IMG/VR virus record: IMGVR_UViG_2880361019_000001
Reading direction: 5' to 3' (one strand)
Origin: a virus
Taxonomy: Duplodnaviria; Heunggongvirae; Uroviricota; Caudoviricetes
Length of the DNA stretch: 55,996 nucleotides
Of this stretch, positions 3,001 through 6,000 are shown in pieces (the first letter of the stretch is position 1; the number at the start of each line of letters is the position of its first letter). A program made the position numbers.

Positions 3001-6000
3001 CGCGGGGGAGTGATTCGGGGAACGGTTTGCGGGTGCGGGTTTGACGCAGCGGGCGCTGCACGGCCGGGTCGTCAACCCGACCGGTAAGGGTATCACTTTC
3101 TTTCTGAAGTGCCTTCAGGTCAGCTTCCATCTGTGCGATACGACGGGAGACTTTTTCCGAGCGGCTGCCGAAGTTCATCCGGCGCAGCTTATCCAGCTGT
3201 GCCTGCAGATGGTCTATTTCGCGTTCACGCTCGTTCAGCTTTTCCTGCAGGGCACGGTTCAGCGCCTCCTGTTCGGCAAGGAGACGTTTCAGTGCATTGA
3301 TATCGTCAGGAAGTGAGCTGCTCATACCGGGTATATTACCAGGCTCATTCAGCGTCGACCAGGATAAAGAGGCTTACAACATAGTCAGGGACGTAAGCAG
3401 TCTTTTAGGCTGCCGCCAGTCGATACCTTCCAGCAGCATCGCCAGCTGTGCCGGTGTGAGGAACACTTTGCCATCCCGGGCTGACGGCCAGGCGAAGCGG
3501 CCGCGCTCCAGCCGTTTGGTCAGCAGACACAGTCCATCGCCGGTAGACCAGAGGAGCTTTACCTGACTGCCATTACGCCCACGGAAGATAAAAACGTGAC
3601 CTGACATCGGATCGTCTTTCAGCGTCGTCTGCACCTTTGCCGCCAGGCCGTTGAAGCCGTTTCTCATATCGGTGATGCCAGCGACCAGCCAGATCTTTGT
3701 CCCTGATGGTAATGGGATCAACGTTTGAGCTCCCGTATCAGCAGGTTCAGGATATTTTCGCTGATGGCACCATTCAGACGGAGTGATCCGTGCCGGAACG
3801 TCACTTCACAGCTGATATTGAGTGATTCAGGTGTCGCAGCAGCTACAGGTTGTGACCGGGGGGAGGTTGTAGGGACAACATCTTCGGCATCAAGTGTTAT
3901 CGGGAGCAGCTCAGGCACGTTGTTTTCTGTTGTTGAAGGAGGACGTAGTTTTCCTTCGCGCCAGTACTGGCGCCACTTGAACAGCAAATTATCGTTGATC
4001 CCATGCTCACGAGCGAGTTGCGCTACGGAGATCTCTGGTCGATGCGAGAGTTCAACCATTTTGATTTTGAACTCAACGGGATAATTAGGGCTTTTTTTAC
4101 GCACTGCGGTTAATGATTTCATGGATAGCGTCCACCATATTTGGTGTCCACTATTCTCTCAGGAATTTCAGGATCTGCCAGACGGTGCTGAGACGACGCT
4201 TACATATCTTCACAGGATCCGTTTGGAACAATTGAAGTTCAACTGTTTTGTCATCAGAGACGGGGGAATGGCTAAGTTGTTGTTAAGAGTGTGAACTCGA
4301 GAGCATAAAAGTGGATGCCCGACGCGCGGCAAAATGGTAAAAAACAGCATCAGTAGTAAGAAAAATTGAGCGAGAGAAAGGAATTTTAATGCAGGGATTT
4401 ATGCATGACAAAATCAAAAATGCTTTGTAAGTGATTGATTTTGTTGAATGATTGGCGGAGAGAGAGGGATTTGAACCCTCGGTAGAGTTGCCCCTACTCC
4501 GGTTTTCGAGACCGATGATACCGAATCGCAAAATCAAAAGGTTATAAATTTTTCTTGGAATAAATGTCTTAAAAACATACACGAAAAATCAATAAATTAC
4601 GTTGAATTCAATAAGAATATTCCAAGCCTTCTTTGAGTTATTTTTGACCAGTTTGCTGTTTTTCTTTCTGATAAAATATTTCCTGATATCCCTTAACATT
4701 ACTGATACTCACGTAGTGAATTTATGAGCAATCCTAATCCATGCATGGCGTGTGGTGCCTGTTGTGCATTTTTCCGCGTCTCTTTTTACTGGGCTAAAGT
4801 AGATGATGCTGGCGAAAGGTTTATCAGAAAACCGTAGCGCCTTCTTGCATACGACGTGTCTGCGGTTTTATATAATCTCGACCAGAAACCTCTTATAAAA
4901 AGTCGATACACAAATATCATGGATAATCACCACCTTCTGACGAAGAATATCTGATGAAATTAATCGCCCCTCTCCTGAGACCATTGCGCTGGGGTAAATT
5001 TGTAACTACCTGTGTACAGCGAAGTGTCGTATAGCACGCCGTCAGGAAATGCAAGGTGTCCCCGATATCCCCGACTACGAGTCAGCAAACAAAGTGATTG
5101 GCTGGCAATCCACATCACAGAAATGGACAATGCTACTTTATAATCGAGTTTGGTAGCCACCTTGATGATCACTTTTAAAAAAAGCGTTTACACAAAATGG
5201 TAAGCAGGCTCACAGGCCCTCCCTCTAATCATCCACATTGTAAAGCTCCTTTGTTGTAAGTAAGATCCGGCACCCTAATAATATCAAAAGGATCAAAATC
5301 ATCACTGCATCCTTCCACAAGGCATTTCATTGCTCGTAGATCACCATATAGCTCTGAAGAGTGGTGCGGACATAACAGATCATAAACTTTACATTTAGAA
5401 CCTTCTTTACCTTGTCTACTTTCCTCAATTTTTACTTTCAATGAATACAGAAAAAAGAGCTCCCTGATATAACCATCCCTGTCATCTATCGTCCTCCCCT
5501 CCCTCAGTGCTCCGACAACCTCATCAGTATTTTCATTTCTCACCTCAAATACACTATTTCTCTTATCCATCAGCCCACTTACAAAAGCACTTAGCTCTTG
5601 ATAAATTTCCTCAAGCTCATTACTATTTCTGGCATTTGAGTATATAGAGGTCATAACATCAAGTTTATCTTGTAATTCAGGAGTAAGAAAATGCTTATGA
5701 TTAAGTTCACTTACTGATTCCGGAGTCGAAGGGTTACCTCTTCCTGATACATACATCCATGAATAAAGATTTGCTGAAGAGCCACTTGTTGGTAACATAT
5801 CAAAACCCCCTTAACAAATAAATATTATAAAAAATATGGCTGTATAAAAATATTATACCTTACTTAATACCACACTAATAAGATCTTGCTTTCCTCCATG
5901 ATAAGATTGCATGATTTCATGTCTACTCCATGAAATATCAGAAACATTATAAGATGATATATCTATTGGATTAAATTCATTTCTCACACGATCATATAAA

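Follow-up and report, generated by a model that had tools for sequence, protein, structure and literature searches.

A serU 3' fragment marks the left boundary of an apparent serU/serT hybrid lambdoid prophage in Escherichia albertii

We analysed a 55,996-nucleotide (nt) stretch of DNA, IMG/VR virus record IMGVR_UViG_2880361019_000001 (the window), which carries a lambdoid prophage with a partial tRNA-Ser gene near its left end and a tyrosine integrase gene at its right end. The window is CP034212.1:656898-712893 of E. albertii 2010C-3449; the retrieved stretch of that sequence (L013) is 100% identical to window positions 42239-55996, without a mismatch over 13,758 bp and with both copies of the insertion sequence (IS) IS1 included. 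CP034212.1 is listed as E. albertii 2010C-3449, a human isolate from 2010 (strain table, PMC10673567), and was treated as a complete chromosome of 4,923,641 bp in a 20-genome comparison (PMC10673567). In this source genome, the prophage is flanked by zinT/msrQP/hiuH/hprRS on the left and by yccA/tusE/yccX/rlmI/hspQ on the right, where chromosomal genes continue from yccA to helD. These flanks are 85 to 90% identical to E. coli, as fits a sister species. Among complete E. coli RefSeq genomes, the best matches to the window reached 92 to 96% over large pieces, and none had the IS66 insertion described below; the source is accordingly not E. coli. A scan of species-representative genomes gave no exact match to the last 57 bases of the window. 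The two ends of the prophage carry the following features.

4453-4514, minus strand: displaced 3' part of the host tRNA-Ser(CGA) gene serU, anticodon stem to CCA (62/62 identity)
4496-4514, minus strand: CGGTCTCGAAAACCGGAGT, anticodon stem-loop, the segment that would necessarily hold the lambdoid crossover (variable-arm polymorphism)
4515-4637, no strand: putative P arm of a serU-type phage attachment site (attP), on the phage side of the junction (similarity to F8704-2 and THO-006)
54757-54999, plus strand: DUF4224 gene upstream of the integrase gene, in the usual excisionase position (PF13986)
54977-55996, plus strand: IntT, predicted serT-specific tyrosine integrase, 339 amino acids (aa) (99.9% nt identity to an integrase gene annotated WP_001299351.1)

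Read on the minus strand, positions 4453-4514 (62 nt, CGGTCTCGAAAACCGGAGTAGGGGCAACTCTACCGAGGGTTCAAATCCCTCTCTCTCCGCCA) span four of the five nucleotides of the 5' anticodon-stem strand, the CGA anticodon loop and the long variable arm, followed by the T arm, the 3' acceptor strand and the CCA end. The segment is identical at 62/62 positions to nucleotides 29-90 of the intact tRNA-Ser(CGA) called by ARAGORN in the E. albertii type strain; the window holds a single copy of it, and 0 of 100 shuffles matched it. The serU 5' half (GGAGAGATGCCGGAGCGGCTGAACGGACC) was absent from the whole window with up to three mismatches allowed, and, besides the fragment, no serU-derived sequence was found in the window or in the 8.7 kb past its right end. 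The end of the fragment falls exactly at CCA, and its start coincides exactly with a change of homology seen across many genomes. It combines a host-type variable arm with an E. albertii-type T stem, GAGGG...CCCTC, which has an A-U pair where E. coli has G-C; among species-representative genomes, the E. albertii type strain was the sole enterobacterium with this variant. In that strain (L030), serU is intact and unoccupied, in the order mtfA - serU - flank - zinT-msrQP-hiuH-hprRS. As judged from these comparisons, the fragment is evidently the 3' part of the host serU, displaced by site-specific integration, and an ordinary prophage boundary mark. The original prediction, made from the sequence alone, had given the coordinates of this partial tRNA-Ser, from anticodon arm to CCA, exactly to the base. 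Its reading of the fragment as a prophage attachment-site (att) junction agrees with the empty site and with the clean lysogen described below; the boundary, then set near 4.45-5.2 kb, can be placed at 4514/4515, and the tRNA-Ser gene entered is serU (CGA).

Neither ARAGORN nor Rfam at its gathering threshold called the fragment as a tRNA in the window, as expected because the gene is truncated; the only tRNAs that they found were the three phage-borne ones at 37134-37383. A sensitive Rfam search gave a sub-threshold match to the Plastid-psbI-rps4 3' untranslated region model at 4456-4507 on the plus strand (43 bits; gathering score, 68). We do not consider it meaningful, as it is the antisense of the tRNA-Ser 3' part; the model evidently matches such antisense sequence, and fragments of this kind could produce false positives.

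Comparison of serU copies locates the lambdoid exchange. Where serU is intact beside its integrase, here IntU (F8704-2 and 12009), the gene has a phage-type variable arm (GTGGGGGCAACTCCAC, with a compensated pair) and an E. coli-type T stem and is followed by the phage arm. The displaced fragments (window, H1, H2, and THO-006) have a host-type variable arm (GTAGGGGCAACTCTAC) and the T stem of the host species, and their CCA is followed by whatever earlier lay downstream of serU, either the native flank or an island, called X here and described below. Because the IntU-side copy is of phage type and the displaced copy of host type, the exchange should lie 5' of the variable-arm polymorphism, within the first 19 nt of the fragment. 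Thus, the new 3' part of the tRNA gene appears to have been supplied by the phage and the host 3' part to have been displaced. The identity block shared by attP and the tRNA gene extends from C28 of serU to the 3' end, as in the anticodon-loop class of integration sites; a classification of tRNA integration sites that reportedly goes back to Williams in 2002 is said to include this class. We also considered whether the A-U T-stem variant came from the attP copy of a phage or island and rejected this, since the variant is native to E. albertii serU and the segment that the lambdoid phage exchanged does not include it.

E. coli F8704-2 represents a clean lysogen of this type, with the order mtfA - intact serU - IntU - DUF4224 - exonuclease ... 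J - lom - tail fibres - nleH - nleF - YkgJ' - serU fragment - zinT. Over the 386 bp to the right of the fragment, the window and F8704-2 are 100% identical. The phage of uropathogenic E. coli THO-006 has unrelated virion genes (sheath and baseplate) yet carries the same IntU-DUF4224-exonuclease module beside serU-mtfA. Its arm beside the fragment is 87.8% identical to window positions 4515-4637, and the similarity fades further out. Since an otherwise different phage shares the IntU module and a related arm, 4515-4637 most plausibly represents the P arm of this integration module. In three unrelated E. coli genomes (L006 679-1729, L010 353-1403, and L060 7262-8312), the IntU gene next to intact serU carries a frameshift annotation with an identical span of 1051 nt, and only about 27 bp separate its stop from the tRNA gene. 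Either the three genomes share a mutation that has spread, or the annotation pipeline compares them with a protein that has another C terminus.

A different type of integrase is encoded at the right end of the window. The annotated gene to which it is 99.9% identical is present in many genomes of enterohaemorrhagic E. coli (EHEC), IntT and IntU share 56% aa identity, and the DNA homology between the window and a serU lysogen drops from 92% in the exonuclease gene to about 65% over part of the integrase gene. Past position 55996, the source genome has 143 bp, then the 3' fragment of serT (UGA) on the plus strand (GGTCTTGAAAACCGG...CGCTTCCGCCA), opposite in strand to the serU fragment, and then a bacterial terminator and yccA. 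The same order, integrase - serT 3' fragment - yccA, is found at the serT locus of O26 RM10386 and of Z1322HEC0009, in the latter with a frameshifted integrase gene. By these comparisons, IntT - serT fragment - yccA is evidently a true chromosomal junction, and IntT is not the cognate integrase of the serU fragment. The prediction had taken the window-end integrase as the partner of the fragment, with an intact tRNA-Ser just outside; this part failed, as the sequence past 55996 holds no intact serU and no matching tRNA or repeat beyond the integrase. By its position, the DUF4224 gene may encode an excisionase.

The interior of the prophage divides in the same way.

4515-41000 (right limit approximate), no strand: cargo, tail, head, lysis and part of the Q region, collinear with the clean serU prophage (blocks of 91-98% to F8704-2)
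44000-55996 (left limit approximate), no strand: replication, immunity and early-left part, closer to serT prophages

From about 44 kb onward, the window is 92 to 99% identical to the serT prophage of Z1322HEC0009 versus 77 to 88% to the serU prophage of F8704-2. Since the left end is a serU-type junction and the right end is a serT-locus junction, the prophage appears to be a hybrid, with the zinT flank of serU at one end and the yccA flank of serT at the other. In serT prophages, the integrase gene lies at the yccA (low-coordinate) end, and in serU prophages it lies at the mtfA (high-coordinate) end; prophages at the two loci are therefore mutually inverted. Homologous recombination between two such prophages would invert the intervening segment and give a hybrid of this kind. 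One such hybrid is shown here, in which the zinT and yccA sides are connected in the orientation predicted for an inversion. We infer an inversion as the best-supported reading rather than as a demonstrated fact, because the evidence consists of one junction and the native gene order in relatives.

Left of the tRNA fragment, the window holds the remains of island X.

4453-4466, minus strand: 14-nt repeat CTCTCTCTCCGCCA, extreme 3' end of serU, putative tRNA-proximal att repeat of island X
4204-4452, minus strand: terminal arm of island X, starting right after the tRNA CCA
1750-4203, minus strand: IS66-family IS inside island X (TnpA, TnpB, and a 512-aa transposase; Pfam domains on called genes)
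876-1712, minus strand: DUF6387 gene of island X (PF19924)
441-659, minus strand: AlpA-family regulator gene of island X (PF05930; converted from L015 11054-11272)
1-393, plus strand: partial IS1 by which island X is cut short at the window edge (100% identity with the IS1 copies of 49290-50058 and 50991-51759)

A second copy of CTCTCTCTCCGCCA lies between an integrase gene, intX, and zinT in the source genome (L015 13931-13944), and the sequence after this distal copy is the native serU downstream flank, 96.2% identical to that of the type strain. The left flank of the source genome thus reads zinT - native flank - CTCTCTCTCCGCCA - intX - IS1 - AlpA - DUF6387 - IS66-type element - 249 bp - fragment. 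The 249-bp arm is 99.2% identical to the sequence directly after intact serU, beside mtfA, in two genomes with X only (L016 and L017), and the DUF6387 gene is also beside serU in these two, H1, and THO-006. Because of the 14-bp repeat with the native flank, and because the X arm directly follows intact serU elsewhere, island X appears to have used the last 14 nt of serU, its extreme 3' end, as integration site. intX encodes a P4-type integrase of 408 aa (Arm-DNA-bind_3, Phage_int_M, and Phage_integrase domains), and X has both features of islands with such integrases, namely, the integrase domains and a short repeat of the tRNA 3' terminus at both ends. In E. coli, full-length X carries AlpA, DUF6387, H-NS, RepL, MobQ, and pilus genes, with a tyrosine integrase adjoining zinT; in the source genome, the stretch between the AlpA gene and intX is replaced by IS1. 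The IS66-type element has terminal GTAAGCG... inverted repeats and an 8-bp target duplication (ATATCTTC, at 1742-1749 and 4204-4211), and its insertion site is uninterrupted in E. coli Z1323HEC0423, so that it is evidently a later insertion into X. The suggestion that two elements may have used this att site was borne out for the tRNA gene: island X and the lambdoid phage both used serU, though at different sublocations, the last 14 nt and the anticodon loop, respectively.

A serial history, from native serU through island X and a lambdoid phage to recombination between serU and serT prophages, very probably explains both the fragment and the hybrid. Its first three steps come from comparison, and the fourth is in part inference. 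The starting point would be the native arrangement mtfA - serU - flank - zinT, like that of the E. albertii type strain. Island X, with its P4-type integrase, would then have inserted at the last 14 nt of serU, which would leave the 14-bp repeat and intX beside zinT and the DUF6387 end of X directly after CCA. Next, a lambdoid phage with the IntU - DUF4224 - exonuclease module would have recombined in the serU anticodon stem-loop. Its attP would have carried a serU copy from anticodon stem to CCA, so that the phage copy completed a functional tRNA gene beside IntU, while the old 3' part, with X still attached, was stranded at the cargo end beside nleF/nleH. Finally, the serU prophage may have undergone homologous recombination with a related, oppositely oriented serT prophage in a shared late/early region (about 34-44 kb), inverting the terminus-spanning segment of about 1 Mb between serT and serU. 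The resulting hybrid would have the serU-type junction, cargo, and virion genes on the left and the serT-type early genes, IntT, serT fragment, and yccA on the right, and a reciprocal hybrid, hya - serT - cargo ... IntU - serU - mtfA, would be expected.

Several points weigh against this history. The reciprocal junction (mtfA - serU - IntU ... serT - hyaA) was not recovered for CP034212.1, where MtfA-based searches gave only E. coli and E. marmotae alleles. A second hybrid was also sought through window proteins encoded twice in CP034212.1; the esterase was encoded once, and the capsid protein was too widespread to inform. Moreover, lambdoid phages are mosaic, and serU-like and serT-like halves alone neither prove parentage nor locate a crossover. 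The linkage across about 50 kb of prophage depends on a single long-read assembly, and the suggested order of arrival, X and then the lambdoid phage, comes from junction structure and is undated. A rival reading is an assembly artefact, in which CP034212.1 would misjoin a serU and a serT prophage through shared lambdoid sequence, with no real hybrid or inversion. Indeed, about 50 kb lie between the junctions, in sequence that recurs from one lambdoid prophage to another, and no retrieved draft contig spans the prophage (L014 begins at IS1). We nevertheless consider a misjoin improbable: the sequence has been handled as a complete chromosome, as noted above, each junction is reproduced independently in other assemblies, the esterase gene (34897-36747), single in CP034212.1, lies in the candidate crossover zone, and a misjoin would demand a compensating error at a second prophage.

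Other explanations keep the two ends within one element or one locus. A single intact prophage, inserted at serU by its own integrase (54977-55996) and with the reconstituted serU just past the window, would accord with the orientation of the fragment and with the early-left order dicB - DUF1482 - exonuclease - DUF4224 - int, both of which resemble true serU lysogens; the flank of the source genome, with a serT fragment and yccA rather than serU past 55996, refutes it, and the serT type of the integrase, its low homology to the serU lysogen, and the lack of further serU-derived sequence leave it scarcely any likelihood. Equally hard to credit is a tandem array at serU like that of O103:H2 12009, where the identical IntT protein occurs twice within a three-prophage serU array and where an attP-like internal junction would lead to more prophages, with IntU-serU-mtfA further on. 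After the serT fragment, both the source genome and the independent draft L014 have the terminator and yccA flank instead of the phage P' arm of 12009, and the chromosomal genes yccA to helD follow directly, which excludes such an array for this genome. It is likewise highly unlikely that a serT-type phage used IntT to enter the near-identical anticodon stem-loop of serU as a secondary site. A single base distinguishes the two loops (CCGGTCTCGAAAACCGG and CCGGTCTTGAAAACCGG), and IntT and IntU are related proteins, but the arm at the serU fragment is an IntU-type P arm that is 100% identical to that of a true IntU lysogen, the serT fragment sits in its native chromosomal setting beside yccA, and the tRNA pieces are in inverted orientation, unlike an integration product. 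As for a degenerate or cargo pseudo-tRNA unrelated to integration, the silence of the tRNA finders speaks for it, but the full identity to host serU, the exact ends, and the existing empty site refute it and leave it next to no probability; on this the original prediction, which had named an unrelated degenerate tRNA as a refuting outcome, holds.

In known lambdoid serU prophages of pathogenic E. coli (F8704-2, O145:H28, and O103:H2 12009), the tRNA gene, the anticodon-loop sublocation, and the displaced 62-nt fragment are the same as in the window, as are the P arm (by the 386-bp identity to F8704-2) and the nleF/nleH cargo between tail fibres and att site. CP-933U/Sp14 of O157:H7 is one that we take to be a lambdoid prophage at serU. 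In contrast to these prophages, that of the window lacks the cognate IntU end and has a serT-type early region and integrase instead; its fragment has the E. albertii T-stem allele, and beyond its CCA comes island X in place of the native flank. Lambdoid serT prophages beside yccA (O26 RM10386 and Z1322HEC0009) have the same integrase gene (99.9% in DNA), arm, and junction, whereas the prophage of the window combines this junction with a left end of serU type in place of intact serT. serU has been cited as a Shiga toxin (Stx) phage site in an O121 strain, and an Stx2f prophage at serT has been reported in E. albertii RM9976 (PMC10673567).

That the end of an island or prophage is marked by a displaced piece of a tRNA gene is an established concept, used by Islander (PMC4383910). 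By that standard, the fragment is identical to the 3' part of the host tRNA gene and extends up to its 3' terminus, and the E. albertii type strain provides an unoccupied target with matching flanks. The regenerated tRNA gene and cognate tyrosine integrase expected at the far end are seen in the relatives F8704-2, 12009, and THO-006, whereas the element in the window bears IntT and the serT fragment there. Island X resembles the P4-type tRNA islands catalogued by Islander (PMC4383910) in its P4-type integrase and short direct repeat of the tRNA 3' end, and its full-length copies share their AlpA, H-NS, RepL, MobQ, and pilus genes; unlike them, X here has the integrase at the tRNA-distal end and is reduced by IS1 to intX and AlpA/DUF6387, plus the IS66-type insertion. 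Prophage-bounded, terminus-biased inversions have been documented in E. coli O157:H7 (PMC8743559). Homologous recombination of oppositely oriented lambdoid prophages flanking the replication terminus would give such a noncognate hybrid. The present case differs in species, in the prophage pair (serU/serT), and in that only one of the two junctions was seen. All components are, by comparison, already known in kind: displaced tRNA fragments, serU and serT phage sites, P4-type islands at tRNA 3' ends, and prophage-mediated inversions.

One prophage boundary is fixed to the base, and in E. albertii the nleF/nleH cargo of a serU-type lambdoid phage is shown to sit right at its att-proximal end. Prophage annotation should not take for granted that the closest integrase and tRNA fragment are a pair: those of this window come from two different tRNA-Ser loci that lie about 1 Mb from each other on the ancestral map. 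Because the two ends of the hybrid are noncognate, IntT probably cannot excise the prophage precisely, and the hybrid would mark a large chromosomal rearrangement. Compensatory base-pair variants, in the phage-type variable arm and the species-type T stem, serve as natural markers of host and phage tRNA halves.

At the serU locus of O103:H2 12009 (L007-L010, 2.32-2.44 Mb), at least three lambdoid prophages lie in tandem. Two internal junctions have the attP-like order IntT - serT-like segment - phage arm - effector cargo, with EspK or EspV'/TccP2 as the cargo. Our guess is that serT-type phages entered this array by homologous recombination into a resident prophage. A bolder idea is that the near-identical serU and serT anticodon stem-loops form a cross-talking site pair, read in opposite orientations by the two related integrases. 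The almost complete stem-loops retained in displaced fragments would then serve as landing pads, giving rise to tandem arrays like that of 12009 and favouring serU/serT exchanges, and hybrids of this kind would arise repeatedly with the help of integrases, not from a single RecA-type event; we regard this as quite improbable.

The cargo next to the boundary comprises three features.

4724-4813, plus strand: YkgJ-family pseudogene remnant (converted from the RefSeq annotation of the homologous stretch in H1/H2)
5229-5798, minus strand: nleF, type III secretion system effector gene, cargo between tail fibre genes and att site (PF16809)
5984-6544, minus strand: nleH remnant, truncated, 186 aa called (weak OspG_kinase match)

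nleF is intact in the window; nleH is truncated and is annotated as frameshifted in E. coli relatives. An IS21-family element at 9427-11729, with genes for a 513-aa IstA-like and a 249-aa IstB-like protein, separates the J gene from a shortened lom (8420-8863, 147 aa called), and the matching E. coli stretch is annotated as ISEc12 family; the element probably inactivates the tail-tip/lom region. On the right, the two IS1 copies at 49290-50058 and 50991-51759 are complete and in direct orientation and bracket a 0.9-kb segment with the DicF small RNA (sRNA) (50768-50819; Rfam, 75 bits) and a ydfC-like sequence, in a layout like that of a composite transposon. The late region has an RNA cluster at 36885-37383, typical of EHEC-type lambdoid phages, with an STnc100 sRNA (108 bits) and three tRNA genes (37134-37383), called by ARAGORN as Arg-TCT, Arg-TCG, and Met-CAT; RefSeq labels the CAT tRNA as tRNA-Ile in the corresponding E. 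coli prophage clusters.

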